Below, piece after piece: positions 27,280 to 50,843 of a stretch of 50,843 nucleotides of DNA. The notes beneath the pieces are model-generated. The model did not search any database. It had not been told where the DNA came from and worked only from the letters and a program-made list of their open reading frames with translations. Source of the DNA: a virus; IMG/VR virus record IMGVR_UViG_3300045988_175861. One strand, written 5' to 3'. The stretch's first letter is position 1. Each line of letters opens with the position of its first letter. A program made the position numbers and the translations under genes.

Positions 27280-27287
27280 TATATTTG
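27280..27287 (+). promoter_or_regulatory. Bacteroidota-type -7 promoter box TATATTTG
   Basis: TTATATTTGCAATAAC lies 23 nt upstream of the carbamoyltransferase start, within a 100-nt AT-rich gap. Confidence 0.6.
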
Positions 27288-27309
27288 CAATAACAAAATT
27301 AAAATAATT

Positions 27310-29061
27310 ATGAAATACTTATTAATCACACTTGGTCATGGCTCATCAGCAATTTATATTGACGATGAAAAGAAAACAGTTATAGGGTACGAACAAGAAC
27401 GTCTATCTGGCATTAAGGCAGATAGCCAATTTCCTAAAGATGCGATAAATGAGATTATAAATAATGTTGGCTATATGGAAATGAAAGGCTGCAACATTTT
27501 TATTTCGCATTGGTTTAATCATCAAGATTCGCCAGCAGATATACTATATAACAAGTATATACAGGAGATTGATGCTATGAACCTAAGAGCATTATCTAGT
27601 AACATAATGCAAGTGAATAAATCATTTTCGCATCATGATGCACATGCGTATAGTGCATTGTCGTTCTTAAAATACAATAGGCCGTCATATAATAAGGAGA
27701 CTTATACGATTGTTGCAGATGGGTTTGGTAACAATGAAGAAGTATTATCGGTATATAAATCTGAAATAAATAATATAATGAGCCCTAAACTCGTATTAAG
27801 AGTTTCAGATTATAGAGCATCACTCGGTCTTATGTACCAATACGCTACTTCATTTTGTGGCATGAAAGAAAATCAAGATGAGTACAAGTTCCTAGGCTAC
27901 GAATCACATATAGATGAAGTGCTGTCGTTAGAAATGATTGATGCATTAGATTTTTATGTAGAAGATAATGTGAAAACACTGGAATCGTATGTACGCGGAG
28001 AAATGCTAAAAAAGTCTGCTGATAGAACAGTATGTAGAGAATGCAATCCAGATATGCTCATAGACACAAGTATGCTATTTGATGTAAGAATGCATTGGTA
28101 TGATATATTTAAAGAAGTGCTAAATATAGCAAACATAGATGTAAACGATACATTCAAAGTAAGATGTGTCATAGCTTACTTTATACAGCAATCAATAGAA
28201 ATATTCTTTGTGAGGCTTATAAATGAATTCAATATGCGAAATGTTTGCTTGGCTGGTGGATGCTTTTATAATGTTAAGCTTAACAACATAATATTAAGCA
28301 GAATAGCAGGTAACCTATGCATAATGCCATTGGCAGGCGACCAAGGAGCAGCAATTGGGATGTATACAGCATTTTCTAGAAAAATATTCAACTTTGGCAA
28401 TTTATGCTTTGGCAAACGACGTTTATACAATATTGAAAAATATGAAAGAAATAATGTAAAGGTTGTAAATTTAAAAACTCCTGGCATAATACAATCGATT
28501 GCAAGAGATATTTGTGATGGCAATATCGTAAATGTTGTGAGAGAAAACATGGAATTTGGTCCACGAGCTTTGTGTTCAACATCTAGTTTATTTCTGCCGA
28601 CTACTGAGAATGTTGCTAGAAACAATATGATGAATAAACGCAATGAGGTTATGCCATGCGCTCCTGTAATTTTATCAGGAAATGCGCATACTATGTTTTA
28701 TAGCAAAGATTTATCAAGAGTTATTGGTAGCTCAAAATATATGATTTGTACATTCGACTATATTAAGAAGTACTCTAAGCAGTATGGTGGCGTAATGCAT
28801 AAAAAGCCTTTAGAGAATGTATATACAGGAAGACCGCAAATCATTGAACCTGATTATATTGATACTGAAAATGATTTTATGTACAATTTGCTAACTGCTG
28901 TTGAAGATATATGTGATGCAAAATGCCTAGTTAATACAAGCTTCAATGCTCATGGCCGCCCAATTGTATTTGACACGATGGATATTATCCATAATTTCAA
29001 TTTTCAATGCGAGCATTCTCCATCTAACAAACAACCTATCTTATATATAATTAAAGGTTAA
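27310..29061 (+). CDS. NodU/CmcH/TobZ-family carbamoyltransferase
   Basis: 583 aa. N-domain motifs LGHGSSAIY, FSHHDAHAYSA and VADGFGNNE. C-domain motifs EFGPRALCSTS, KRNEVMPCAPV and VNTSFNAHGRPIV. All match the Carbam_trans_N and Carbam_trans_C signatures as I know them. Confidence 0.85.
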   Translation: MKYLLITLGHGSSAIYIDDEKKTVIGYEQERLSGIKADSQFPKDAINEIINNVGYMEMKGCNIFISHWFNHQDSPADILYNKYIQEIDAMNLRALSSNIMQVNKSFSHHDAHAYSALSFLKYNRPSYNKETYTIVADGFGNNEEVLSVYKSEINNIMSPKLVLRVSDYRASLGLMYQYATSFCGMKENQDEYKFLGYESHIDEVLSLEMIDALDFYVEDNVKTLESYVRGEMLKKSADRTVCRECNPDMLIDTSMLFDVRMHWYDIFKEVLNIANIDVNDTFKVRCVIAYFIQQSIEIFFVRLINEFNMRNVCLAGGCFYNVKLNNIILSRIAGNLCIMPLAGDQGAAIGMYTAFSRKIFNFGNLCFGKRRLYNIEKYERNNVKVVNLKTPGIIQSIARDICDGNIVNVVRENMEFGPRALCSTSSLFLPTTENVARNNMMNKRNEVMPCAPVILSGNAHTMFYSKDLSRVIGSSKYMICTFDYIKKYSKQYGGVMHKKPLENVYTGRPQIIEPDYIDTENDFMYNLLTAVEDICDAKCLVNTSFNAHGRPIVFDTMDIIHNFNFQCEHSPSNKQPILYIIKG

Positions 29062-29065
29062 TGCT

Positions 29066-29710
29066 ATGAAAAATACGTACTTCGTAGTTTTCTCTGGTGG
29101 TTGTTACAGTGGGAAAACAACTACCATGCAGAAATTCACAAAAGCTCTTGAGAATAAAGGAGTTAAAGTAAAAGTTTTAGATGAGATTGTAAGGAAGCAC
29201 AAGATACAATCTATTGATAAACTGAGAAAAAACCCAGTAGCTTATCTTGATTTTCAAAACAGAATAATAAATGAGAAAATAGAAGCTGAGTTATCATGCC
29301 TCAATGAAAATAGAAAACAAGTTGTAGTTTGTGATAGAGCAATTACTGATTCACTCTTCTATTTGCTATTCTATGTTGACAAAGCAAATTTGAATGAAGA
29401 GCAAATGGCACTCTACGCAAATTTGTATGAAAGTATAGACCAATATGCGAAAAGAGCATTCAGCGAGATATATGATTTGTTAATAGAATTTAAGCCAATC
29501 AATAAAAATGAAACTTATGATTCATACAGGCCAAAAAATATTAGCATAAATAAATATATTGAGTATAAGATGATAAACACTTTGAATGATGCTTACATGA
29601 ACACTTCTACAGACTTACAGGCTTTATATCTCGATTTGAATAAAGGCTCTTACGATGATTTACTTGAAGTAATAACGAATAATATTGCAAAACGATATGA
29701 CAAAGATTAA
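29066..29710 (+). CDS. P-loop nucleotide kinase-like protein (dNMP kinase or DNA 5-hydroxymethyl-pyrimidine kinase candidate)
   Basis: 214 aa. Walker A FSGGCYSGKTT, then VVVCDRAITDSLFY, which resembles the DR...D..Y lid region of dNK/AAA_28-type kinases. Confidence 0.6.
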   Translation: MKNTYFVVFSGGCYSGKTTTMQKFTKALENKGVKVKVLDEIVRKHKIQSIDKLRKNPVAYLDFQNRIINEKIEAELSCLNENRKQVVVCDRAITDSLFYLLFYVDKANLNEEQMALYANLYESIDQYAKRAFSEIYDLLIEFKPINKNETYDSYRPKNISINKYIEYKMINTLNDAYMNTSTDLQALYLDLNKGSYDDLLEVITNNIAKRYDKD

Positions 29711-30518
29711 ACATTTTAACAAGTTGAATGAATATATAACAAGCAATACTTGGAGAGTGTTCTTCAACCAGTTCTTAGACCAAATTCCGTACTCTGAATT
29801 AAGAGATAAGGAATATCTGGAAGTTATTGGAGCTACTTACAGAATACTGCCTGAAAACTATTTAATGAGTAATAACTCATCTTTAATCAATCCTAAAAAG
29901 TTATATGCATTGTTCAAATGGTATAAAAAAGGAGATAGCAAAGACACATCCATAGTACAATATTTTCCTGAATATGAGCATCGTGTTGATTTTTTCCATA
30001 GCGACTTCAATTCTAACTACGGAATATACGCATATAAGAAAAAAGGAATTGTAAGATGCGCGCATGAGCTGATTAAAAACAGAAATTCAAGACAAGCTTG
30101 CTTTATGATAAACAATAATGAAGCAATGTCTGAAGATTCTATTGATAAACTATGCACTAATGCTATAATGTTCTTCATAAGAGACAACATGCTCAACATG
30201 TGCATACAGATGCGCTCATCTAATATACTCACAATGCTTCCATACGACATATTTATGTTCTGTGTGTTCTATTATCAGGTTTTAGAAATGGTATCGTCAA
30301 AATACCATGACTTAGATACAGGTGTTATAACTATGCAAGTTGGCTCTCTTCACATGTACAAAAAAGATATGGAAGAAATAAAAAGTACAAAGCCTTTATT
30401 AAAAATTGGAATTGATGGCTCATATTTATATGGTGGTATGATACCTTATAGATACGCGCATACGAAGATTACTCCAGCGATTGAAAATATTCTCAAACAA
30501 CTAGCTGAAAATGGATGA
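29685..30518 (+). CDS. Thymidylate-synthase-fold pyrimidine C5 transferase, paralogue 1 (dCMP hydroxymethylase/methylase candidate)
   Basis: 277 aa. SNYGIYAY (YGxQW region), NSRQACFMINN (SRR...WNP region), catalytic-Cys segment KLCTNAIMFF, QMRSSNILTMLPYDI (aligns to QRSCDVFLGLPFNI) and GSLHMYKKD. Asp replaces the Asn177-equivalent residue. Confidence 0.75.
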   Translation: MQNDMTKIKHFNKLNEYITSNTWRVFFNQFLDQIPYSELRDKEYLEVIGATYRILPENYLMSNNSSLINPKKLYALFKWYKKGDSKDTSIVQYFPEYEHRVDFFHSDFNSNYGIYAYKKKGIVRCAHELIKNRNSRQACFMINNNEAMSEDSIDKLCTNAIMFFIRDNMLNMCIQMRSSNILTMLPYDIFMFCVFYYQVLEMVSSKYHDLDTGVITMQVGSLHMYKKDMEEIKSTKPLLKIGIDGSYLYGGMIPYRYAHTKITPAIENILKQLAENG

Positions 30519-30771
30519 TAATACCGATTTGCTGCTAAAATATGCCAAACAGAATAATGATTTTCTGAGGGCTATATACTCTCTTACAAAGCAAAATAAT
30601 GAATTGTTGAAATATATAAAGCAAGAGATAGATAAAGAATTTAGCTTAGAAAATCTCATAAAAGTGGAAAGCGTTATTTTTGTAGCAAATATAGTTGCTA
30701 ATATATTTTCAAACATTTTATATCATGATTTATTAGAAGACAAAAGTAAGTATAACAAAAAGCAAAAATGA
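30511..30771 (+). CDS. Hypothetical protein
   Basis: 86-aa ORF that overlaps both neighbours by a few nt. Confidence 0.55.
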   Translation: MDDNTDLLLKYAKQNNDFLRAIYSLTKQNNELLKYIKQEIDKEFSLENLIKVESVIFVANIVANIFSNILYHDLLEDKSKYNKKQK

Positions 30772-31265
30772 TTATGAAATTCTTAAAAACAAGAAATGTG
30801 AAAAGCCCAGTAAGAGGCACTGATAAGTCAGCAGGAATTGATTTTTTCATTCCAGAAGATTTTGAAATAATGAGATTATTTCCTGGTGACGATGTGCTCA
30901 TTCCGTCTGGAATTAAAGCCAATTTGCCAGAAGGTTTCATGCTGATGGCCGCAGACAAATCAGGTGTTGTTACATCAGAAAATGCTGTACTTAAAAGTGG
31001 AAGAGAGCCTAAAAAGGGCGCATTCAATTCAAATTTGATAATTGGCGCAAAGATTGTTGATGAAGACTATCAAGGAGAAATACACATACATTTAATAAAT
31101 GTTGGTAAGCATGAAGTTATGCTAAAACCTGGTATGAAGATTGCACAATTTATCTTAGTGCCAGTTGCATATGCTGCTTTAGAAGAAGTCGATAGCGAAA
31201 CTGAATTGTTCGATGCTAAGACAGCAAGAGCAGATGGTGGTTTTGGCTCTACAGATAAACGATAA
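30768..31265 (+). CDS. dUTPase-family (trimeric) nucleotide pyrophosphatase
   Basis: 165 aa with all five motifs: SAGIDFF, DKSGV, AKIVDEDYQGEI, MKIAQF and RADGGFGSTD. It has about 14 extra residues between motifs 2 and 3 relative to E. coli Dut as I recall that sequence. Confidence 0.85.
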   Translation: MIMKFLKTRNVKSPVRGTDKSAGIDFFIPEDFEIMRLFPGDDVLIPSGIKANLPEGFMLMAADKSGVVTSENAVLKSGREPKKGAFNSNLIIGAKIVDEDYQGEIHIHLINVGKHEVMLKPGMKIAQFILVPVAYAALEEVDSETELFDAKTARADGGFGSTDKR

Positions 31266-31278
31266 CACATAAGGTTTT

Positions 31279-31345
31279 ATTCTAGAGAGGCTTTTTATTA
31301 GGTCTAATATATTTCATTCTCAATTTGATTTAGCCTCTCTAGAAT
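31279..31345. promoter_or_regulatory. 14-bp perfect inverted repeat with 39-nt spacer
   Basis: ATTCTAGAGAGGCT (31279-31292) pairs with AGCCTCTCTAGAAT (31332-31345). No flanking T-tract. It lies between the dUTPase-family gene and the next ORF. Confidence 0.6.
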
Positions 31346-31375
31346 AGCCTAAGATAACTTAACTTATTTAAACAA

Positions 31376-31705
31376 ATGCATATGAAAACTATAATCGTAT
31401 GTTTAATGCTACTACTTGCTAATAGCTCATTTGCTCAAATATATATTGAAGATATTGATGAGAAAATAGAGCAATTGGTACAACAGAATAGAATACTGCT
31501 ACAAAAAGCTGATAGCCTTAATAAGCAATTAAAAATCATAATTGCAAGCAGACAAGAAGGTGATGCAATGATAAAAGCAAGACAGAATGAGATAAATTCT
31601 TTACTAGGAATAGTAAAAGTCAATATCGATATGATGTATGCTTTGCAAGATAGAAAAAGAATACTTCAACAGATAGAAAGCAATGGATGCAATAGTAATA
31701 AATAA
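31376..31705 (+). CDS. Secreted coiled-coil protein
   Basis: 109 aa. Signal-peptide-like N terminus MHMKTIIVCLMLLLANSSFAQ, then heptad-like sequence. Confidence 0.6.
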   Translation: MHMKTIIVCLMLLLANSSFAQIYIEDIDEKIEQLVQQNRILLQKADSLNKQLKIIIASRQEGDAMIKARQNEINSLLGIVKVNIDMMYALQDRKRILQQIESNGCNSNK

Positions 31706-31910
31706 TGTAATGCATGAATTATTGCTTAATAAAGATTTTATGCCTGGAAATGTAGCAATAAAAATGTGTGATATGTGTTCATTAAAAAGTTATTGTTGGA
31801 ACTTAAGCATTCCTGATATATGCGATACTTTGATAATGCAAGATGAGCATAAAAATGATTACAGGATGTTTAGAGAAATTGGCAAATTGCAAGGTTATTT
31901 CTTAGAATAA
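31683..31910 (+). CDS. Hypothetical Cys-rich protein
   Basis: 75-aa ORF with CDMCSLKSYCWNLSIPDIC. Confidence 0.5.
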   Translation: MDAIVINNVMHELLLNKDFMPGNVAIKMCDMCSLKSYCWNLSIPDICDTLIMQDEHKNDYRMFREIGKLQGYFLE

Positions 31911-31927
31911 TTAAACATAAAAAATGT

Positions 31928-32356
31928 ATGGCAAGAAAAACAGTGAATATTGACCCTCTTATAAATTCAGATTTATTCCTTAAGTTTGCAGGTCATTTTG
32001 CAGATAAGTTTAAAAAGCAAAATGGGTTTGGCAAATGGCTTGAAGAGTATAAGAGAATGGACAAACAAGGATTGTTCGAACCAGAGAAACTAAGGCAACA
32101 ATATATTCAAGTTATTAACAATAATTATAGACTTGGATTTGTACATAAACAAGCGATTGTGTATATTTGTGTACAAGCACTTGATGCCGTAAAATTTGGC
32201 ATAGAAACTAAGAATTATAGCATTTATGTAATATCAGGTGAAATAGCTATTGATGACAATGGATTGGAACTTAAAAATCTTAAGCATGATGACGCAATAA
32301 CTATTTGCAAATCTATGAATGAAGAAGCAGAAGAAGAATTATTTTATGTAAAGTAG
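31928..32356 (+). CDS. Hypothetical protein
   Basis: 142-aa ORF that starts with ATGGCAA. Confidence 0.65.
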   Translation: MARKTVNIDPLINSDLFLKFAGHFADKFKKQNGFGKWLEEYKRMDKQGLFEPEKLRQQYIQVINNNYRLGFVHKQAIVYICVQALDAVKFGIETKNYSIYVISGEIAIDDNGLELKNLKHDDAITICKSMNEEAEEELFYVK

Positions 32357-32361
32357 CAACT

Positions 32362-33060
32362 ATGATAGACAATACTATTAAAAACTTAATATTCTTAGAT
32401 GCAACTGATGCGTTTGAATATTTGTATGAATACATAATGAAATATGGAAAAAATACAAATATAGGGACTAAAGCTATATATAACGCTGGGTTTTATATAG
32501 CACAACCGCAAAGAAGACTTATAGAAACTAGATGGAGGAAATTCAGTATAACCTATGCAGAAAGAGAATGGCAATGGTATTTATCGCAAAATAGAAGTGT
32601 CAAAGACATAAAGAAATATGCCAAGATTTGGGATAAAATGCATGGAGGAGACAATATAGTCAATTCAAACTATGGTTGGCAATGGAACCGCAATGCACAG
32701 CTTGGAAAATGTATAGAACAATTAAAGGCAAACAAAAATACACGCCAAGCTTGGCTTACAATATTTGATGGTAAAGAAAAAGATGATTATGAATTTGACA
32801 CACCATGTACATTGTCTATAGGCTTTGATATACTACAAAATGAAAATGGCGATGATTTTCTCAATATGTGTGTAAACATGCGGTCTAATGATTTGATTTA
32901 TGGTTTTTGCAATGACCAATATTGTTTTTCTATGTTACAAGAATACGTTGCAAAAAAACTAGGTATCCGTGTAGGAACATATTATCATTTTGTTCATGAT
33001 TTACATATCTACGAAAAGCATTATAACTTAAAAGAAAAATATTATGAAAAAACTAGGTAA
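32362..33060 (+). CDS. Thymidylate-synthase-fold pyrimidine C5 transferase, paralogue 2
   Basis: 232 aa. NYGWQWN, NTRQAWLTIFD, catalytic-Cys segment DTPCTLSIGF, NMRSNDLIYGFCNDQY (aligns to QRSCDVFLGLPFNIAS) and DLHIYEKHY. Asp again sits at the Asn177-equivalent position. Confidence 0.8.
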   Translation: MIDNTIKNLIFLDATDAFEYLYEYIMKYGKNTNIGTKAIYNAGFYIAQPQRRLIETRWRKFSITYAEREWQWYLSQNRSVKDIKKYAKIWDKMHGGDNIVNSNYGWQWNRNAQLGKCIEQLKANKNTRQAWLTIFDGKEKDDYEFDTPCTLSIGFDILQNENGDDFLNMCVNMRSNDLIYGFCNDQYCFSMLQEYVAKKLGIRVGTYYHFVHDLHIYEKHYNLKEKYYEKTR

Positions 33061-33229
33061 AATTTTATGGGATTGTTTATGCTTTTTATATTTTTTCGTC
33101 TATGCATTAGGCTGGTTACTTCATAAAGTAGCAAGATTCCTATTAGCTATTAGCTATTATATTATGTTACAAAAAAGACCAGCAAATGATATTATGGAAA
33201 GCTTATTCAAATTCAGTAAATGGTTTTAA
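33044..33229 (+). CDS. Small membrane protein
   Basis: 61 aa with two hydrophobic segments (ILWDCLCFLYFFVYALGWLL, FLLAISYYIML). Confidence 0.5.
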   Translation: MKKLGKILWDCLCFLYFFVYALGWLLHKVARFLLAISYYIMLQKRPANDIMESLFKFSKWF

Positions 33230-33243
33230 AGTAGATTACGTGT

Positions 33244-34149
33244 ATGGCAATTACTAATAAAGAAGCAGCAAAATTCCTTCATGAAATAGAAGATTCAGAT
33301 TCTGAATATGACTCGCAGATGAAGGAAGAGATACGCAAGATACAAATTGAAGAAATGCAGGATGACCTTCTGCCAGAAGAAATGATGTCTGACAGGGCTT
33401 GGGGTTTTACTGTAAAGGCAGAAAGAGACGACAGCGGAGAGATGGTACGCGACGAATCTGGCAGACTTGTAATTACTAAAAGACCTGTCTTGTATGAAGA
33501 GAAAAAGAAAGAATGGGAAAATTACCTCATTAAAAAGAAGCAATTTGCAGAAAAGAACCAAGTAGCGAGTGAAAAGAGGCGTCTGCAAATCAAAAGAGAC
33601 GCGCTTGAAAATAACCTGAAAGACCTGAACAAAAGCCTGACGACTGAAGACAAAAAGATAATAATCAGTATAATGTCGGCTAAGTACCAGAACCTCATGG
33701 ATAAATCTCTCAATTACATTAATAATAGAATTGAGACACTGCTGAAGCCATATATTCCGCATATTGTGAAAAGCTGTTGGGCACAATATCCTGATATATT
33801 TAAAATAAATGACGGGTTCATGTATGAAGCTAGTAAAGAATATGGCAAATCTCTTGCTATATGGGTTACTCCTAACATTCCATTTTTCTTTTCAAAAGGA
33901 ACCGAAATGGATATGCTAAGAGAAACTAGTAGCGAATTTCTTTTCTACATTGATAAAGCAGTTGTTGCATATTATGAGCATAGAGACAAGTTAATTGATA
34001 TGCAATCCAAATATGCATTCAGGCTTACTAAGATTGATACATTTTTAAAGTTAGTTGAAAAGCATCCATTCTGGTATGACAAGTATGTCAAATGGCAAGA
34101 GCAGCAAAAAGTGATTAAAGAAATTGAAGATAAAAAACTTTCCTGTTAA
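33244..34149 (+). CDS. Hypothetical protein (last gene of the modification operon)
   Basis: 301-aa ORF with an acidic N-terminal half. A strong hairpin terminator follows. Confidence 0.7.
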   Translation: MAITNKEAAKFLHEIEDSDSEYDSQMKEEIRKIQIEEMQDDLLPEEMMSDRAWGFTVKAERDDSGEMVRDESGRLVITKRPVLYEEKKKEWENYLIKKKQFAEKNQVASEKRRLQIKRDALENNLKDLNKSLTTEDKKIIISIMSAKYQNLMDKSLNYINNRIETLLKPYIPHIVKSCWAQYPDIFKINDGFMYEASKEYGKSLAIWVTPNIPFFFSKGTEMDMLRETSSEFLFYIDKAVVAYYEHRDKLIDMQSKYAFRLTKIDTFLKLVEKHPFWYDKYVKWQEQQKVIKEIEDKKLSC

Positions 34150-34173
34150 TACTCCATACATTTTTAATTCTAA

Positions 34174-34212
34174 AAAGCCGACGGTCTGTGAAGATAGTCG
34201 GCTTTGCTTTTT
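34174..34212. terminator. Bidirectional hairpin terminator with GGTCTGTGAAGATA loop
   Basis: 9-bp stem AAAGCCGAC/GTCGGCTTT, 14-nt loop, T-tract on the + strand and A-tract upstream. It lies between convergent genes. Confidence 0.75.
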
Positions 34213-34281
34213 GCATTAAAATCGTTCCAGGAGAAAAAGCCATTTTGGCTCTGGGAAGTACGGTCAGGGGGCCTGGGATGA

Positions 34282-34728
34282 TTATTTCTTTACTGCTTTC
34301 CAAAGATGGTAAATACTGCCTTTCTCTGTTTGAATATACTGTTTTCCATAATCATTGTAAAGAATTTTGCACACCTGTGGCTCTAATGGTGGTTTACAAG
34401 TGTTTGCATATCTTACTGTGCATTCACTGCTTATTCCATCCCAATTTATCTGCAAATACCAATTATTGAACAAATCAATATATAGATTGTATTGAAATTC
34501 ATCTTCTTCATATGGGATGAATAGAGCTTCTATGAGACCATTTCTTTCATCCAAATAGCACCAATCGTCATCTATATGAAAGCCATTCTGGAAGCGCCTA
34601 TTTATATCATAGACAAACTTCATATTTGCTTCATCAATCATAGGTTCATCATCTTTCATGTAGAAAAATGCATCATTTGGAATTATGACCCGCTCTGCAT
34701 GGTCATAATTCATAGAATAATTTGCCAT
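34282..34728 (-). CDS. Hypothetical acidic protein (leftward early module)
   Basis: 148-aa ORF that starts with ATGGCAA, with a TATATTTA box about 90 nt upstream on the minus strand. Preferred over the overlapping + strand ORFs. Confidence 0.65.
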   Translation of the reverse strand: MANYSMNYDHAERVIIPNDAFFYMKDDEPMIDEANMKFVYDINRRFQNGFHIDDDWCYLDERNGLIEALFIPYEEDEFQYNLYIDLFNNWYLQINWDGISSECTVRYANTCKPPLEPQVCKILYNDYGKQYIQTEKGSIYHLWKAVKK

Positions 34729-34817
34729 AATTTTTTACTGTCTATCTGTGTATTATTCATCTAGTAATATGCAATATTTTTTACTGCAGCCTAGACTACA
34801 GGCTACATTTTAACATG

Positions 34818-34825
34818 TAAATATA
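34818..34825 (-). promoter_or_regulatory. -7-like promoter box (TATATTTA on the minus strand)
   Basis: The reverse complement of TAAATATA lies upstream of the 34728 start. A TTTTCTGTTAAT element sits at 34852. Confidence 0.4.
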
Positions 34826-35073
34826 GAAAAAATATTTGAATAACCAAAGAATTTTCTGTTAATTATTTGTTAAATATTATAAAGCCACATTCAATATAAA
34901 AATCAGGCATTGCTAATATCTTATCTAGATATTAACCAGCATACTAGATTTAGCCTAGATTTAATTTAAATACAAGAAACGATAAAACCCATTGGAAATT
35001 ATAAAAGTTTCTAGAAATAGCCCAAAATGACCTAAATTGAGTAGAAATATTATGTTTAATATAAATGGAGGCA

Positions 35074-35113
35074 CAAAAATATAGGCAGGCTATCTTCACA
35101 GACTGCCTGCCTA
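35074..35113 (-). terminator. Hairpin terminator (minus strand) with AGTCTGTGAAGATA loop
   Basis: 9-bp stem TAGGCAGGC/GCCTGCCTA with a 14-nt loop. The minus-strand transcript continues into TATATTTTT. It lies directly downstream of the 35167..36249 gene. Confidence 0.75.
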
Positions 35114-35166
35114 CTGGTTTTCACCTAAACTTAATTATGAATTATTTAAACAGAATGGCTGGTATA

Positions 35167-36249
35167 TTATTCAGCTGAATTTTCAGCATTTTCTGCAGCT
35201 TTGAGTTCACTGTCAAGCTTTTCTGCAAGTTCTTTCTTAGCTTCTTCAAGCTCTTCAGTCAATTTTGCCTTCTTTGCATTCAGCTTCTCAATCTGAGCAT
35301 CAATTTGTGAAATTCTCTTTTCGGCCAATTCGATACTCTTTTCAGGAGTTAATTCCTCTTTGTTTTTTCTGTTATGCAGTCTTTCCATATATTTGGCATT
35401 CAGCTTTGCACCTTCTTCATCAAGCTCTTCTGCCAATCTCAAATCTTTATTGTCTGACACTTTGTGAGAATATTTAACAGGGAGACCTAATGCTTTCTCA
35501 TCTTCTGTTTGGTCAATTGCAATTCTGAACAGAATTCTCTTGCCTCTCTTATCTGCTACTAGTGATACAACTCTACCAGTTTCAGTCTCTGCATTCTCAA
35601 TCTTTTCTCCAATTGCTCCAGTCTTCTCATAAGCAATTGTTTTGCCGACATGGACTGAATTCTCCTCAATTGCCTTGTTAATATCTTCTTCAGCCCAAGG
35701 TTCTTTTGGCTGTGAATTTTCAGATGACCTCTTAGTGCCTCTTGCTTTCTTCGGCAATTCAACAACTTCATCTTCAATCTTAATGAGCTGAGAATCTACA
35801 GCTTTCACAATTCTCCGGCCATCATCAAGCTTAATGGCATACATTACTTTGTTTGACCTCTTTTCCTCAATGATTGAAACAACTATTCCTGGTTCCCAGA
35901 TTGCAGTATTGAAAGGCACAACTTGGCATCTATGGCCAATTGTAGTTTCTTTCAATTTTGCTGCAAGCTCAGAGCGCTCTTGGTCAGTCATCTTCTTTTT
36001 TGTTTCCTTTGAGCCACCTTTGCCTTCATAAGAGGGGTTTATGCCACCATTTTCCTCAGCTGCTTTGATTGCTGCCTCTTCTTCCGGAGTAAGTGGAGCT
36101 TCTTCAGCTTCAGCTACCTCTTTGGCTTTTTGCTGTCTAGCTTCAAGGATTGCTGTGATTTGGTCTTTCACTTCTTGAGTAGTTTCTTCACTGTTGAACA
36201 TTTCATTCAATTTCTTTGAACTCATCTGATTTAAATTCTTTGTTGCCAT
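35167..36249 (-). CDS. Hypothetical highly charged protein with an internal duplication and C-terminal coiled coil
   Basis: 360 aa, monocistronic with its own promoter module and terminator. GIVVSIIEEKRSNKVMYAIKLDD and GRVVSLVADKRGKRILFRIAIDQ are two copies of a small beta-rich module. Confidence 0.75.
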   Translation of the reverse strand: MATKNLNQMSSKKLNEMFNSEETTQEVKDQITAILEARQQKAKEVAEAEEAPLTPEEEAAIKAAEENGGINPSYEGKGGSKETKKKMTDQERSELAAKLKETTIGHRCQVVPFNTAIWEPGIVVSIIEEKRSNKVMYAIKLDDGRRIVKAVDSQLIKIEDEVVELPKKARGTKRSSENSQPKEPWAEEDINKAIEENSVHVGKTIAYEKTGAIGEKIENAETETGRVVSLVADKRGKRILFRIAIDQTEDEKALGLPVKYSHKVSDNKDLRLAEELDEEGAKLNAKYMERLHNRKNKEELTPEKSIELAEKRISQIDAQIEKLNAKKAKLTEELEEAKKELAEKLDSELKAAENAENSAE

Positions 36250-36256
36250 AATTTTT

Positions 36257-36356
36257 AGTTTTTTAATTGGTTATTATTAGCTTTAATTTGTTATTGCAAA
36301 TACGATTGTTATTTTTTAATCTTGAAAGTATTTTAGAACTTTTTTCTGTTAAATAA
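36257..36356 (-). promoter_or_regulatory. Leftward promoter module A
   Basis: On the + strand: AGTTTTTTAATTG (36257), the complement of the -7 box CGTATTTG (36297-36304), TAATCTTGAAAGT (36317) and TTTTCTGTTAAATAA (36342). The order and 20/45-nt spacings match module B. Confidence 0.65.
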
Positions 36357-36399
36357 TGTTTATGATACCTTCAACTGTTTTTCTTTAATTATCACATTG

Positions 36400-36407
36400 C
36401 AAATATA
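36400..36407 (-). promoter_or_regulatory. -7 promoter box TATATTTG (minus strand)
   Basis: Reverse complement of CAAATATA, within the 36250-36496 intergenic gap. Confidence 0.45.
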
Positions 36408-36496
36408 CATGTTTCCTGATTGTATTTTGTTAATTGCAAGTTAAAATTTTCTGGTTGTCTGTTAAATTTTGTTTTAGCATTTGCTGTTATTTCAAA

Positions 36497-36748
36497 TTAC
36501 AACTCAGCCACTTTTTCTAAATTATAACATGCGTTTTCTAAGACTCTATGCATCTTGGACCTCATTTCAGCTTCACTGATAACATTTCTTTTGAATATTA
36601 TTATGAACTGGCAAGGACTAACTTCTATTATAACTGATGAGCCTGAAAGCTCAGTCTGTAAGTTATCTACAATTATGCTATAATCACTGTTTCTAAGTGG
36701 TGCAATTTCAAATCTATAGACTACACAATCTCCATTCTCTTGTTTCAT
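36497..36748 (-). CDS. Hypothetical protein
   Basis: 83-aa ORF, the last gene of the four- or five-gene leftward operon. Confidence 0.6.
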   Translation of the reverse strand: MKQENGDCVVYRFEIAPLRNSDYSIIVDNLQTELSGSSVIIEVSPCQFIIIFKRNVISEAEMRSKMHRVLENACYNLEKVAEL

Positions 36749-36771
36749 AATTCTCAGTGTTTTTTAAATGA

Positions 36772-37077
36772 CTACAATAAATTAACTTCTCCTTTTGTTA
36801 TATCAAAAATCTGTATACCACTCAAAATATGAAACTTACCATACTTTGCAAGTCCTTTATAATTAACTATTTTCTGTGCATAATATCTATTCTGAGCTTT
36901 GCTGTAATTTATTTGATAAATTGAAGAATACCCACAAACATATAATTTTTCTCTTTCAATAATTTCACAAGAAATTCTGTTAAGTTCTATATTTCCAGCT
37001 TTGCATTCTATTGCTGTGTCTTCATACATAACATGAAAAGGGACATCTTCTGGTCTTTTGTAAATAGCTGTTTTCAT
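36772..37077 (-). CDS. Hypothetical protein
   Basis: 101-aa ORF in the leftward operon. Confidence 0.6.
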   Translation of the reverse strand: MKTAIYKRPEDVPFHVMYEDTAIECKAGNIELNRISCEIIEREKLYVCGYSSIYQINYSKAQNRYYAQKIVNYKGLAKYGKFHILSGIQIFDITKGEVNLL

Positions 37078-37089
37078 AATTATTAGTTT

Positions 37090-37185
37090 TTAAATTCCAA
37101 ACAAATGATAACTTATGATACTTATAAGGAGCATAGCCAATCCTATGGCTATGCATATATCTCCTTCTTTTTTATTGCTCTCCAT
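37090..37185 (-). CDS. Possible small membrane peptide (31 aa)
   Basis: Hand translation of the minus strand gives MESNKKEGDICIAIGLAMLLISIISYHLFGI. It fills the gap between two leftward genes. Confidence 0.4.
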   Translation of the reverse strand: MESNKKEGDICIAIGLAMLLISIISYHLFGI

Positions 37186-37199
37186 GACTACCTGAATTA

Positions 37200-37472
37200 T
37201 TACAGCTTATATTCTATTACTTTGTGGGCAGTTCTTGACTCAAATGCATTATGAGCAAACCCAAGTGTAGATGCCAACCTTACTGCTTTTTTCAATTGTA
37301 TCATTATTTCAAATGCTGCATCTTGAGCATTGTGTTCAGCGATTGAAAAATCTCTGTTGTTGCTACATTCATTCTGTGTCTTTTCAGCATTCTCAATATC
37401 AGCTAAGCATTTATTGATTTGCTTCATTGTTGCCTTAATCTCTTTTCTGTAATCTTCTGTCAAAGTCTTCAT
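37200..37472 (-). CDS. Hypothetical protein
   Basis: 90-aa helical ORF, the first gene downstream of promoter module B. Confidence 0.65.
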   Translation of the reverse strand: MKTLTEDYRKEIKATMKQINKCLADIENAEKTQNECSNNRDFSIAEHNAQDAAFEIMIQLKKAVRLASTLGFAHNAFESRTAHKVIEYKL

Positions 37473-37479
37473 AACTGTA

Positions 37480-37577
37480 AGTTTTTTAATTGTTAGTATT
37501 CTTTTGTTTTGGTATTACAAATATACAGGATAATTTCTAATCTTGAAAGTTTTTATAGTTAATTTTCTGTTAAATAA
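37480..37577 (-). promoter_or_regulatory. Leftward promoter module B
   Basis: On the + strand: AGTTTTTTAATTG (37480), the complement of TATATTTG (37518-37525), TAATCTTGAAAGT (37538) and TTTTCTGTTAAATAA (37563). Confidence 0.7.
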
Positions 37578-37579
37578 CC

Positions 37580-37594
37580 ATGCCATTGTGGCAT
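37580..37594. repeat. Palindrome ATGCCA-TTG-TGGCAT
   Basis: Perfect 6-bp arms. It is the first member of the TGGCA/TGCCA motif family that fills 37580-38320. Confidence 0.7.
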
Positions 37595-37783
37595 TAAGCA
37601 TTAATTCTTATTTCCGCATAATCATGCCAGAATGTCATATTGAAACTATCTCAAATCAGTTATCATTTAACGGCTTTATAGTGCTGTTATGAATGCAATA
37701 TTGGTGTGATATCAAATCAAAATTGTAATGGCATCATGCACACAGGTGATAATGACAAATTGGCATGTTGCATACTTGTAGGG

Positions 37784-37802
37784 TGACAGGATGACAGGAT
37801 GA
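37784..37802. repeat. 8-bp tandem repeat TGACAGGA x2.4
   Basis: TGACAGGATGACAGGATGA read directly from the sequence. Confidence 0.8.
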
Positions 37803-38006
37803 AATTTGTTGATGATTGTTAACAATTTTGCCTTGGTGCCAGATTTAAAGTGAATTTGAATGCCTGAATGCCATCATCATTTTTCGGACTAGGAAATTAT
37901 GGTAAAATAACTGCTTATTGGCTAATTGCCATCATAGCAATTTTGAAGTAACATCAAACTTACAAGCTAATAACTATTATTATATTATTGCAGCAATTTC
38001 AAATAT

Positions 38007-38080
38007 GGCATAATGGCATCATGGCAATTAGCTCAATGGCATAATGGCATCATGGCAATTAGCTCAATGGAATAATGGTA
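38007..38080. repeat. 31-bp tandem repeat x2.4
   Basis: The unit GGCATAATGGCATCATGGCAATTAGCTCAAT is perfect at 38007-38037 and 38038-38068, followed by a degenerate partial third copy. Confidence 0.9.
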
Positions 38081-38124
38081 ACAAGAATAGTAATAAATTA
38101 TTACAAGTAAGGCATTTTGACATT

Positions 38125-38160
38125 AGGCCCCTTTGTGCCTGAGAGCCGGGGCCTTTATTA
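38125..38160 (+). terminator. GC-rich hairpin, terminator-like
   Basis: 7-bp stem AGGCCCC/GGGGCCT with a 16-nt loop, followed by TTATTA. The T-tract is weak and it is isolated in an ORF-free region. Confidence 0.4.
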
Positions 38161-38200
38161 TAAATAATATGATGATGAGCTCTTTGGCAATCAGACTTTT

Positions 38201-38264
38201 TTAAGTTTTTAGGCTTTTTATTAAGTTTTTTAGGTTTTTAAGTTTTTAGGCTTTTTATTAAGTT
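38201..38264. repeat. 27-bp direct repeat (37-bp period), T-rich
   Basis: TTAAGTTTTTAGGCTTTTTATTAAGTT occurs at 38201-38227 and 38238-38264, with TTTTAGGTTT between the copies. Confidence 0.9.
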
Positions 38265-38640
38265 ATTTGATTTAATATTTTCATAAGCAGGCCCATAGAC
38301 TAAATGGCAAAATGGCATTTTTGCTTCCAAAAAAATTTTAACTATATTTCTAAGTGTGAAAAATGTTTAATCAATTTTGAGCGCTAGATTTTAATAGCTT
38401 TAAATTGACATTTATAAGTCATCGTTTTTAGGCTAATTTCTTTTCCAGAATAAAATAAAGCATATCCAGACTGACTTTTAAGGCTAATTATAATATTTAA
38501 AGTCAACGCGTGCGTACAAAGGCATCGCTTTACAAACCAATATACCGTTTATCGGTCTGGTAAAAAGCCACAATCTAAAATTATCCCATATTTGGCATTT
38601 ATTTACTATCATAAAAAGTCAAGAAACAAGAATTTTTCTT

Positions 38641-38733
38641 GTAAACAATGATAAACAATCGTAAACAATGTATCGTTTATCGATAAGTGATTGATTTTCA
38701 ATAGAATAAGCTATAATAAACAATATAAACAAT
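38641..38733. repeat. Composite ATAAACAAT iteron element, copy 2
   Basis: Boxes at 38641, 38651 and 38661 (exact 10-bp period), an inverted variant box, then GCTATAATAAACAATATAAACAATAA (boxes at 38716 and 38725). The architecture matches 17086-17179. Confidence 0.8.
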
Positions 38734-38804
38734 AATTATTCTAATAAAAGGGGTTTAATTATATAAAAAGTATATATCGTATAAATAGGGGGTATATAAC
38801 GAAA

Positions 38805-38850
38805 ACGCGCAGGCACGCGTGCGCGTGTACGCACACACATGGGCACGCAC
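38805..38850. repeat. GC-rich alternating pyrimidine-purine tract (Z-DNA-prone)
   Basis: 38814-38841 (CACGCGTGCGCGTGTACGCACACACATG) is a perfect 28-nt Py-Pu alternation. Shorter alternating runs flank it, and it contains the palindrome GCACGCGTGC. Confidence 0.85.
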
Positions 38851-38865
38851 CTTTTTAGCGATTTT

Positions 38866-39300
38866 ATTGTTTACATTGTTTATCGACGTAAAATTGGACT
38901 GTAAACGACTGATTTTTAATCACTTACAAATAAACAATATTGATAAACAATGATTTTTTTCTGACAATTTAATATGTTTATTTTGTTTATACTGGAATTT
39001 TTCTTGTTCCACTTGTCAAAATTTATCAGTGTAAATTTTACAAAGTGACACTTTGTCATTGGACAAAAGTGGTAAAATGGAAAATATACAATTTCGTTTA
39101 TTCCATTTTACTATTAGCCAGCCTAGAAACTATGTGTCGTTCTACCACTTTGCTGTCAAAACTTTTCTTGAACACTCACAACTGGCCCGGACTTCCTAGT
39201 TTGCACTTTTTATTGTTTATCTTGTTTATTCTATTATAACTGACTGAAAACTAGCAAGTTAGCGATAAACAATGCTTGTTTACTAGAAATATTTATTGTT
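38866..39300. repeat. Dispersed ATAAACAAT boxes, both orientations (about 11 copies)
   Basis: Examples: ATTGTTTACATTGTTTAT (38866 onward), AAATAAACAATATTGATAAACAATG (38929 onward), TATTGTTTATCTTGTTTAT (39208 onward), GATAAACAATGCTTGTTTAC (39263 onward). Confidence 0.7.
39040..39056. promoter_or_regulatory. Perfect 17-bp palindrome ACAAAGTG-A-CACTTTGT
   Basis: 8-bp arms read directly. It is nested within a second imperfect inverted pair (CCACTTGTC / GACAAAAGTGG) and followed by a 10-bp-stem hairpin at 39072-39111. Confidence 0.6.
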
Positions 39301-39388
39301 CCTACAAAATTTTCTCTTTTTCTTACCACAGCCAATCATCATTATACTTTTTTAACTTAAAAGACTTTTTTAATTCGCAGCCTTTATT

Positions 39389-39396
39389 CATATTTG
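39389..39396 (+). promoter_or_regulatory. -7-like promoter box CATATTTG upstream of terS
   Basis: TTCATATTTGCATAAC lies 54 nt upstream of the 39450 start. It is one mismatch from TAnnTTTG but has the same TATTTGCA core as the other boxes. Confidence 0.5.
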
Positions 39397-39449
39397 CATA
39401 ACAAGCTAATAATGAGAATTTATATAAACATAACTTTTAGAACTGTATT

Positions 39450-40160
39450 ATGCAAGAAGACAGAACAGAAAAGATACTTGAATTGCTACCAGAAGTTGAT
39501 TCAAGGCACGCTAGAGTGGTCGGCAAGCTGAGGGAGCGAGCTATAGCTGAAAAGGTTGAAGATATTGACCAGAAGTATACAGCTGCCGAACTAGCAAGAG
39601 CGAAGCTTAGAGAAAAGCGAGCAATAGAAAATCTAGAGAGCAAGAAGGCAACAGAGAGAAAAATTGATGAATCTAAGCTAGCTGAGCGTAAGAAAAATCT
39701 TGACATTTTGGAATCAATTGAGACCGACCAAGCAGCGTCTGCAAAACTCTGTGTTCCTGAACACGCTCTTCCTCTGCTTGGAACTACTAAGCCAGAAGTT
39801 GCCAAGCTGCTGACTTCACTTAATATCAATCTCAATTTGGCACTTACTAAGCAGGATACAATGAACCTGCTTTCATCGCTTTTGACTTGTAATGAATCTC
39901 AGCTGAATGCTGTATATAACAATAAAAAAGTGCCAGTTGCCATTAAGACAGTCATAAAGAGGCTATTAGAAGACGCGAAACTTGGCAATATGGATACAGT
40001 TGAGAAGCTGTGGGATAGAGTGTTTGGAAAGTCTGGTATGGTTATAGATTCAACTGCATATACAAACCAGTCACAGATAGCACCTGGACTGCTACCAAAT
40101 ACGGTTGTATCAAGAGAGGCATACATGATAATAAGAGACACAATAATTGGAGACAGATGA
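39450..40160 (+). CDS. Small terminase subunit candidate
   Basis: 236 aa directly upstream of terL, with a charged coiled-coil N-terminal half. The C-terminal ...IKRLLEDAKLGNMDTVEKLWDRVFGKSG resembles the A..G.......L.DR..GK segment of small terminases. Confidence 0.55.
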   Translation: MQEDRTEKILELLPEVDSRHARVVGKLRERAIAEKVEDIDQKYTAAELARAKLREKRAIENLESKKATERKIDESKLAERKKNLDILESIETDQAASAKLCVPEHALPLLGTTKPEVAKLLTSLNINLNLALTKQDTMNLLSSLLTCNESQLNAVYNNKKVPVAIKTVIKRLLEDAKLGNMDTVEKLWDRVFGKSGMVIDSTAYTNQSQIAPGLLPNTVVSREAYMIIRDTIIGDR

Positions 40161-50447: not shown

Positions 50448-50843
50448 AAAAGATTATCTGTAATAAAAATATTATACAAGTTTATGACGGTATAGATGAG
50501 CTTCCTATAATAAATTTTCAGAAGTTTAATAAGTTTTTGCTTATCGATTCTGGCATAGGTTCTGATATAGATGATATTGACAGGCATGCTGTATATATTG
50601 CTAAGTTGATAAACACAGACAAGGCAAAAGCATTGCAGGAATTACAGAATATGCGGCAAAATATGTATATGATTAGTAGCGAAATATCTCCTAAATATAT
50701 GGCTTTTGCATCATTGATATATAGCATAAACGGTAAAAGAGTAACTGATTATTCAGATGATAATCTAAAAAATATTATAAAAAGTATAAATACAGTTAAG
50801 CATTGTACTATACTATCATTTATTGCAAAATTTAAAAAAAAAG
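50444..50843 (+). CDS. 5' part of the wrap-around CDS that ends at 487
   Basis: The ATG at 50444 overlaps the previous stop (ATGA). The frame stays open to the end of the window and continues in frame 2 at the window start. It is missing from the ORF track because it has no stop in the window. Confidence 0.75.
   Translation, partial: MKKIICNKNIIQVYDGIDELPIINFQKFNKFLLIDSGIGSDIDDIDRHAVYIAKLINTDKAKALQELQNMRQNMYMISSEISPKYMAFASLIYSINGKRVTDYSDDNLKNIIKSINTVKHCTILSFIAKFKKK
50725..50843. repeat. Terminal overlap, copy 2 (identical to 1-119)
   Basis: Exact repeat of nt 1-119. It fits circular closure or an assembler overlap better than a physical terminal repeat. Confidence 0.9.

Follow-up and report, generated by a model that had tools for sequence, protein, structure and literature searches.

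What do the eleven genes that lie side by side at positions 27280–34212 of the virus record IMGVR_UViG_3300045988_175861 make? The window, meaning here the whole 50,843-nucleotide (nt) stretch analysed, starts and ends with the same 119-nt direct repeat (1–119 and 50725–50843 match exactly) and therefore represents a closed phage genome of 50,724 bp, either circularly permuted or terminally redundant. The block consists of eleven co-directional open reading frames (ORFs) on the + strand (27310–34149), located between a TAnnTTTG box and a hairpin. Homology, active-site signatures, synteny and co-occurrence indicate that it is probably a module for cytosine hypermodification in a tailed phage of Bacteroides type with a closed genome of ~50.7 kb. 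The module would lead to 5-carbamoyloxymethyl-deoxycytidine (5cmdC) and also includes a second, divergent thymidylate-synthase (TS) paralogue, TS1. The catalytic steps, the share of cytosine that is replaced and what TS1 makes are inferred.

An initial annotation of the window had described this block and proposed that it makes a hydroxymethylated pyrimidine and caps it by means of an O-carbamoyltransferase. The eleven ORFs were present at the sizes it gave, all on the + strand, between the box at 27280 and the hairpin at ~34174. Its five domain calls (a carbamoyltransferase, a P-loop protein, two TS-fold proteins and a dUTPase) were confirmed by Pfam, with PHROGs in agreement, and the gene set fits such a pathway with cytosine as the base, as do the full-length homology of the carbamoyltransferase and the active-site signature of one TS-fold protein, TS2. 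The five genes are as follows (aa, amino acids; dCMP, deoxycytidine monophosphate; 5hmC, 5-hydroxymethylcytosine; AF2, AlphaFold2):

27310–29061, + strand: carbamoyltransferase, 583 aa, a 5hmC O-carbamoyltransferase homologue with a Kae1-like N-terminal and a YrdC-like C-terminal domain (Pfam, PHROGs, homology)
29066–29710, + strand: P-loop nucleotide kinase, 214 aa, predicted modified-dCMP kinase (AAA_28, phrog_2107)
29697–30518, + strand: TS1, divergent TS-fold paralogue, candidate 5-hydroxy-dCMP synthase (alignments, AF2 model, synteny)
30768–31265, + strand: trimeric dUTPase-family nucleotide pyrophosphatase, 165 aa (PF00692, Protein Data Bank (PDB) matches)
32362–33060, + strand: TS2, 232 aa, predicted T4 gp42-type dCMP hydroxymethylase (Pfam, PDB match, signature)

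Conservation was counted over 19 loci of the clade to which the window belongs. These five core genes were found in 18–19 of them (the kinase and TS2 in all 19), and a compact form of the module was found in contig L069.

The carbamoyltransferase and its published relative

A carbamoyltransferase from a sewage metagenome has been purified and assayed in vitro (Yang et al. 2021, eLife, PMC8670742). The enzyme acted on 5hmC in single-stranded DNA, 5hmdCTP and RNA, producing 5-carbamoyloxymethylcytosine from carbamoyl phosphate and ATP, and was inactive on 5hmdUTP (PMC8670742). The precedent that the initial annotation mentioned for this modification thus exists. The window enzyme matched both Pfam domains above their cut-offs (Carbam_trans_C, 6.5e-28; Carbam_trans_N, 1.3e-20) and PHROGs family phrog_1601 (9e-70), and aligned with the characterised 5hmC enzyme over its full length (residues 1–571 against 1–545) with 34% identity and an E-value of 8e-99. 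The metal motifs HxxxH, DGxG and GDxG were present as HHDAH, DGFG and GDQG.

The positions equivalent to W408, G421 and R423 of TobZ separate enzymes associated with modified DNA from TobZ-like ones (Yang et al. 2021, PMC8670742). When mapped by their +13/+2 spacing, as distinct from an alignment with TobZ, these positions were V/C/T in the window enzyme, I/C/T in the characterised enzyme and W/G/R in NovN; an aliphatic residue followed by C and T was found in 49 of 52 related phage enzymes. The antibiotic O-carbamoyltransferases TobZ, NovN and GdmN share with the window enzyme the two-domain architecture and the expected carbamoyl-adenylate chemistry. However, their similarity to it was limited (E-values of 5e-17 to 6.5e-9) and concentrated in the C-terminal half, the window enzyme carries V/C/T in place of W408/G421/R423, and its genomic context is that of DNA replication rather than a biosynthetic cluster. 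By every sequence test applied, the carbamoyltransferase belongs to the published 5hmC carbamoyltransferase family.

TS2 and its association with the carbamoyltransferase

TS2 matched the Thymidylat_synt family (PF00303, 2.7e-24), and its best match in the PDB was T4 dCMP hydroxymethylase (1b49, 1.3e-16). At twelve active-site positions it was the same as T6 gp42 (E58/W80/Y94/L143D/C146/H147T/R166/S167/D169/G173/N177D/H207). It therefore has the catalytic Cys146, the N177D change linked to cytosine specificity and the acidic residue at position 143 linked to water access, and it keeps the folate-pocket residues E58, W80, D169 and G173. By every sequence test applied, TS2 belongs to the T4 gp42-type family.

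Every TS-fold ORF was scored at these twelve positions in a survey of 58 IMG/VR loci, three loci of cultured phages and L075, the 63.9-kb contig on which the characterised carbamoyltransferase naturally occurs; this contig is missing from IMG/VR and was obtained through the protein database. A TS identical or nearly identical to the T6 gp42 signature accompanied the carbamoyltransferase in every locus with enough flanking sequence (about 50 of the 62), and this pairing extended to L075, Xp15 and the Acinetobacter phages. In five loci (L039, L041, L043, L045 and L047) the TS lies directly upstream of the carbamoyltransferase and has Q58 instead of E58 and E169 (QWYDCTRSEGDH) instead of D169.

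That TS1 and TS2 might behave as plain dTMP synthases, an outcome that the initial annotation had held out as evidence against its proposal, was not borne out by the sequences, since both have D177, D143 and T147 in place of Asn177, Leu143 and His147, which rules this function out. The best NCBIfam thymidylate-synthase scores of the two proteins (35 bits for TS1 and 80 for TS2) also lay below the equivalog cut-offs of 108–427. Uracil as the target base was likewise ruled out by N177D in both proteins. The product had been left as a dC or a dU derivative: dC is supported, and dU can be excluded because both TS proteins have Asp at position 177 and the characterised enzyme refuses 5hmdUTP.

These results bear on a quite different reading of the block, in which the carbamoyltransferase would act on a glycan, an antibiotic-like molecule or a host metabolite beside an ordinary nucleotide metabolism, leaving the DNA unmodified or hydroxymethylated only; in a variant, uracil would be the target. 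NodU/TobZ-family enzymes do usually act on sugars or secondary metabolites, and Nol-like cyanophage homologues have been annotated as auxiliary metabolic genes. Yet the cyanophage enzymes showed only ~24% partial identity to the window enzyme, compared with 34% over the full length for the enzyme that acts on DNA. The residue signature associated with modified DNA is present, the link with an N177D TS homologue is invariable, and neither TS protein has Asn177 or comes near the thymidylate-synthase cut-offs, so they are not dTMP synthases and uracil is not their substrate. We consider this reading highly improbable.

TS1, a divergent paralogue

The calling of two TS-fold paralogues was correct as to fold, but the two proteins are not equivalent. 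TS1, the 277-aa one, carries D169N and losses in the folate pocket. It starts either at a TTG (29685), giving 277 aa, or at an ATG (29697), giving the 273-aa form present in public data (P0001). It matched Thymidylat_synt at 8.7e-8. Its R166–N177 block, which aligns without gaps, reads MRSSNILTMLPYD and contains D169N, G173M and N177D. Cys146 is present, with Asp three residues before it (L143D); there is Leu at E58 and no Trp at W80, so that E58, W80, D169 and G173, the four residues of the folate pocket, are all replaced or lost. These assignments rely on the gap-free block and on the residue at Cys-3, the columns of E58, W80 and L143 shifting between alignments. Its sequence makes it very unlikely that TS1 acts as a folate-dependent hydroxymethylase.

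The same features characterise its family. Among 98 members from public metagenomes, N169 was found in all 97 that could be aligned, position 173 was always Leu or Met, and E58 was always replaced by a hydrophobic residue. Y94, R126, C146, R166, S167, D177 and H207 were invariant, in a family with a mean column identity of 46%. A profile search of 1.84 billion representatives yielded about 19 crown clusters, nearly all with N169 and L, M or F at position 173, and a thin outer shell in which G173 was lost and position 169 was D or H; beyond it lay only classical D169/G173/D177 proteins. Across the family the oldest change is thus the loss of G173, not D169N. TS1 was found only in the Bacteroides-phage-like clade, always directly after the carbamoyltransferase and kinase genes, even in members with 41–43% identity. 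The three reading frames overlap or nearly abut throughout the 19 clade loci, as they do in the most divergent members.

A TS homologue studied by He et al. 2026 is reportedly a flavin- and O2-dependent 5-hydroxy-dCMP synthase. The corresponding structures (He et al. 2026; PDB 9iqc and 9iqu, AfhB) are titled ‘monooxygenase dependent on riboflavin with dCMP and FAD’. In Lee et al. (2026, NAR, PMC13326640), the TS homologues of RB69, DLP3 and HY126 are described as flavin/O2-dependent 5-hydroxy-dCMP synthases, and D169N as diagnostic of such enzymes, nine out of nine diverse natural D169N variants having made 5-hydroxy-dC (5hodC). A TS mutated to D169N does not open the imidazolidine ring of the folate, according to the title of PDB entry 1bjg. 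RB69 gp48 and a Lazarusvirus homologue have also lost W80 and have Val at G173, the E58 position of gp48 being ambiguous.

With D169N, N177D, Cys146 and an acidic residue at position 143, TS1 thus shows the sequence pattern published for 5-hydroxy-dCMP synthases. It resembles those of RB69, DLP3, HY126 and RL38JI in its TS fold and in all four of these residues, and also in lacking W80, in having a bulky aliphatic residue instead of G173 and in lying beside a dedicated nucleotide kinase. It differs from them in that no glycosyltransferase or NDP-sugar genes lie alongside, in that it coexists with a 5hm-type TS and a carbamoyltransferase, and in that the hosts of TS1 phages are anaerobes and some members of its family have D169. 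The AF2 model of TS1 (predicted local distance difference test (pLDDT) of 87) has the TS fold. A fold search with this model retrieved MilA, T4 dCH and 9iqc, all with E-values of 1e-13 to 1e-11; 9iqc was among the top hits, with a TM-score of 0.72 and a root-mean-square deviation of 4.3, at ~17% identity. In sequence searches of the PDB, T4 dCH (4e-9) scored better than 9iqu (8e-6). On balance, we regard the question of whether TS1 is a 5-hydroxy-dCMP hydroxylase as roughly evenly balanced.

The kinase and the dUTPase-family protein

The kinase has a Walker A motif (GGCYSGKTT) and matched AAA_28 (2.7e-10; 41 bits against a cut-off of 27) and, over its full length, phrog_2107, annotated as ‘thymidylate kinase’ (2.3e-11). 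Its scores lay below the curated cut-offs for dTMP kinases (14.4 against 27 for Pfam Thymidylate_kin, 23 against 83 for the NCBIfam dTMP kinase). It had no sequence match in the PDB and no similarity to RB69 gp45, and tblastn searches with it found no gene annotated as 5-HMUDK. Contig L069 (2147–3562, P0047) contains a 471-aa ORF in which a P-loop kinase is fused to TS1, although this was seen in one contig only and may be an assembly artefact. A fusion with TS1 suggests a nucleotide-level role for the predicted kinase.

The dUTPase-family protein matched PF00692 (9.1e-18), and all five motifs were visible when it was placed beside solved dUTPases and E. coli Dut. Its best PDB matches were dUTPases (1e-14), and it scored 89.3 bits with the NCBIfam dut model, under the equivalog cut-off of 103. 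The initial calling of a dUTPase-like enzyme held as to family; the protein is not a gp56 homologue, and a dCTPase role is only tentatively suggested for it. An insertion of ~21 aa (VTSxxAxxxxGRxPKxxA...), conserved in the crown clade, was observed between motifs 2 and 3, immediately ahead of motif 3 and adjoining the base-recognition hairpin. It is present in the window and in L001, L006–L013, L018–L020, L038 and L050, where it accompanies a TS1 with Leu or Met at position 173, and absent from L021–L023, in which TS1 has D169 and N173.

The proposed pathway and the role of TS1

In the pathway that we propose, the dUTPase-family enzyme would trim the dNTP pools and possibly supply dCMP, from which TS2, with methylene-tetrahydrofolate, would form 5-hydroxymethyl-dCMP. 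The P-loop kinase, together with host kinases, would convert this to the triphosphate, to be put into DNA by the family-A polymerase of the phage. The carbamoyltransferase would generate carbamoyl-AMP from carbamoyl phosphate and ATP and transfer the carbamoyl group to the 5-hydroxymethyl oxygen, either on single-stranded DNA or on the nucleotide, and the resulting 5cmdC should block restriction enzymes. TS1, with a cofactor pocket rebuilt as in the 5-hydroxy-dCMP synthases, would make 5-hydroxy-dCMP, which the kinase and the carbamoyltransferase would process in the same way. Two cytosine derivatives may thus be made by the phage, one of them possibly a carbamoylated 5-hydroxycytosine. Since no glycosyltransferase was found in the genome, the carbamoyltransferase is the only candidate decorator if 5-hydroxycytosine (5hoC) is made.

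Several observations weigh against this scheme. Identity between the carbamoyltransferase and the characterised enzyme is no more than 34%. The dUTPase-family protein has no similarity to gp56 of RB69 or T4, and neither a MazG-like dCTPase (including the Xp15-type hydrolase) nor a dCMP deaminase was found in the clade loci; full replacement of cytosine is thus not assured. As regards TS1, the fold comparison does not separate hydroxylases from hydroxymethylases, and in a neighbour-joining tree TS1 formed its own long-branched clade apart from the verified hydroxylases, so that Asn169 would have arisen independently in it. The TS1 proteins of cultured B. fragilis phages and of a basal subgroup have Asp169. 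Finally, the known 5-hydroxy-dCMP synthases require O2 and flavin (PMC13326640), and the cultured relatives of the window phage infect the anaerobe B. fragilis. Common descent of TS1 with the RB69 gp48/AfhB clade was not recovered. Monophyly with the verified hydroxylases may not be required, however, since the D169N variants that Lee et al. tested were diverse.

The Asp169 proteins include those of BF503P2 (L001, 11459–12265) and of L021–L023; in all of them E58, W80 and G173 are still lost. The cultured B. fragilis isolates, differing from the window phage at diagnostic residue 169, may also differ in behaviour.

The separate position of TS1 in the tree, the Asp169 members (those of the cultured B. 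fragilis phages included), the G173 loss as the oldest change of the family and the conflict between an anaerobic host and O2-dependent chemistry would all fit a TS1 that is not a hydroxylase. It would then be a folate-independent paralogue that binds dCMP or 5hmdCMP and has another role, the DNA containing 5cmdC only. Replacement of E58 by a hydrophobic residue also points to a mechanism unlike that of T4 gp42. Possible roles include a scaffold or channelling subunit within a complex for nucleotide synthesis, an enzyme acting on the product of TS2, or O2-independent chemistry at C5. On the other side, the invariant nucleotide-binding and catalytic residues point to an active enzyme on a cytosine nucleotide, N169 was found in 97 of 97 aligned metagenome members, and all nine D169N variants tested by Lee et al. 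were hydroxylases. We consider a non-hydroxylase TS1 rather unlikely, though to be kept in mind.

A closer connection between TS1 and the carbamoyltransferase can also be envisaged, in which TS1 would make 5-hydroxy-dCMP and the carbamoyltransferase would esterify its ring hydroxyl, yielding 5-carbamoyloxy-cytosine, an undescribed base, alone or beside 5cmdC. The strict contiguity of the carbamoyltransferase, kinase and TS1 genes in 19 of 19 clade loci and the most divergent members, the kinase::TS1 fusion and the D169N signature speak for such coupling. In addition, 5hoC is the handle for a group transferase in every known case (PMC13326640), and the carbamoyltransferase is the sole transferase encoded. 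Nevertheless, outside the clade the carbamoyltransferase family is paired only with 5hm-type TS proteins, TS2 is kept in 19 of 19 clade loci, and the activity demonstrated for the characterised enzyme is on 5hmC. The known hydroxylases depend on O2, in contrast to an anaerobic host, and an enol/aryl-type carbamate might be unstable in DNA. Such coupling of TS1 is therefore judged unlikely. To a similarly small extent we would credit the broader idea that phages of anaerobes independently evolved a folate-independent TS1 which adds oxygen or a new group at C5 of dCMP, for decoration by the carbamoyltransferase.

Relatives and known systems

Megablast of the block against GenBank phages returned nothing, and relatives were found by protein-level searches only. 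GenBank contains six cultured B. fragilis phages with the module. The other cultured carriers are Xanthomonas phage Xp15 (L002) and the Acinetobacter phages HHU4 (L003), Effie and MD-2021a; from their genes, these four are predicted to be 5cmdC carriers. Their module is organised as in L075, with a carbamoyltransferase, a MazG-like hydrolase, a P-loop protein, a 5hm-type TS and a dCMP deaminase. Gp37 of Xp15, annotated as ‘putative DNA polymerase subunit’, starts with a Walker A motif, like a 182-aa protein on the Yang contig.

The window and the Yang system (L075) have in common the two-domain enzyme with its metal motifs and discriminating residues, a TS with N177D, L143D and D169, and a P-loop kinase, and in both the module lies in the replication region, just downstream of a SNF2 helicase gene. 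In the Yang type, Xp15 and the Acinetobacter phages, a single TS is accompanied by a dCMP deaminase and a MazG-like pyrophosphatase. Both of these are missing from the window, which instead encodes an enzyme of the dUTPase family and, as a second TS, the D169N-type paralogue.

The T4/T6 pathway (gp56 dCTPase, gp42 dCMP hydroxymethylase, gp1 dNMP kinase and glucosyltransferases) follows the same logic, in which a TS homologue makes 5hmdCMP ahead of replication, a phage kinase phosphorylates it and the hydroxyl is then decorated. TS2 has exactly the gp42 active-site signature. The decoration predicted for the window phage is carbamoyl, however, not glucose; its pyrophosphatase belongs to the trimeric dUTPase fold and does not resemble gp56; no relationship could be detected between its kinase and the T-even kinases tested; and the phage is a 50-kb siphovirus-like one, outside Straboviridae.

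Other genes of the block

The remaining six ORFs of the block are:

30511–30771, + strand: 86-aa ORF, no family match in Pfam or PHROGs; 6 of 19 clade loci
31376–31705, + strand: 109-aa ORF, accessory, with a signal-peptide-like N terminus (MHMKTIIVCLMLLLANSSFAQ); 3 of 19
31683–31910, + strand: 75-aa ORF with four Cys residues, accessory; the window only among the 19
31928–32356, + strand: 142-aa ORF, no significant match in Pfam, PHROGs or NCBIfam; 12 of 19
33044–33229, + strand: 61-aa hydrophobic ORF; 17 of 19
33244–34149, + strand: 301-aa conserved, mainly helical protein, the last gene of the block; 17 of 19

These had been put forward as six partners of unrecognised function. The 61-aa and 301-aa proteins are indeed conserved (17 of 19 loci each), but the coiled-coil ORF of 109 aa and the Cys-rich 75-mer are not (3 and 1 of 19), and the four less conserved ORFs (12, 6, 3 and 1 loci) are probably accessory. 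The 109-aa ORF matched no family in Pfam, PHROGs or NCBIfam. The 301-aa protein was represented by only 11 clusters among 5.8 billion proteins. Searches of Pfam, PHROGs and NCBIfam with it were empty, and its AF2 model (pLDDT 69, predicted TM-score (pTM) 0.44) had no structural match under an E-value of 0.03.

In the compact module of L069 a 303-aa ORF occupies the position of the 301-aa protein, the order being carbamoyltransferase, kinase::TS1, dUTPase, TS2 and the 303-aa ORF, followed by a response-regulator gene. In other related contigs, IBR/RING-between-RING-like (L072, 7994–8803), Gad2-family (L074, 4387–5019) and Sequestin-family (L070, 11913–12137) genes were seen just downstream of the module.

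Boundaries of the block and genomic context

Two features delimit the block:

27280–27287, + strand: predicted Bacteroidota-type -7 promoter box, TATATTTG followed by CA (direct reading)
~34174–34212, unstranded: hairpin, AAAGCCGAC...GTCGGCTTT followed by GCTTTTT, between convergent genes

The TATATTTG box lies 22 nt before the ATG of the carbamoyltransferase gene, within an AT-rich gap of 100 nt. The box motif was not enriched in the window (77 occurrences against 74 expected). However, 12 of 21 related loci had TA(T/C)(A/T)TTTG followed by CAG 30–40 nt 5′ of the start of the carbamoyltransferase gene, and most of the others had versions with one mismatch. The proteins of the loci with the conserved box are only ~50% identical, and one of these loci is that of a cultured B. 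fragilis phage. A sigma-70 promoter scan was uninformative for Bacteroidota. A gap of 110 nt lies within the block (31266–31375). The hairpin had a folding energy of −20.1 kcal/mol (z = −3.65), equalled by none of 200 shuffled sequences; together with the T run it is likely to be a bidirectional intrinsic terminator, as read from the sequence.

The rest of the genome contains tail genes, a lysis cassette, packaging and head genes, and a replication module (exonuclease, single-stranded DNA-binding protein, family-A polymerase, primase-helicase and SNF2 helicase). No glycosyltransferase or further recognisable modification enzyme was found in it, and no tRNA genes were found in the window. The terminase shares 70% identity with those of B. 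fragilis phages, human faeces being the source of the next relatives. These sequence relationships point to an anaerobe as the probable host.

At 34200–39450, leftward genes with inverted GC and AT skew break an otherwise rightward genome. They encode a highly charged 360-aa protein (35167–36249) and numerous small ORFs, all of them lacking Pfam matches. The gene for a 1391-aa tail fibre contains internal direct repeats (7732–8468) of 110–176 nt with 70–85% identity, which suggests repeated domains.

Implications for Bacteroides phages and their DNA

The novelty claimed for the pathway in the initial annotation was overstated, since the pairing of the carbamoyltransferase with a TS had already been described and the module is present in six cultured B. 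fragilis phages. The main 5cmdC inference is already in print; what is new here is the TS1 paralogue, a small family found only in this phage clade. The literature that could be searched mentions 5cmdC only in the 2021 paper by Yang et al.; it contains no report of this base in virion DNA from an isolated phage and nothing on the DNA of the cultured carrier phages.

The 5cmdC pathway is widespread, and its cultured carriers make the natural existence of this base directly testable; one of them has already been used in a phage cocktail. The presence of TS1 raises the questions of whether two differently oxygenated cytosines are found in one phage and of how an O2-dependent DNA modification would serve a phage of an obligate anaerobe. 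If TS1 does add oxygen or a new group to dCMP for carbamoylation, virion DNA would contain an undescribed base, for example 5-carbamoyloxy-cytosine, perhaps together with 5-carbamoyloxymethyl-cytosine, and if its reaction works without O2 it would represent new chemistry for the thymidylate-synthase fold. DNA containing 5cmdC would resist many restriction enzymes, and sequencing of gut viromes may under-represent or mis-call such DNA.

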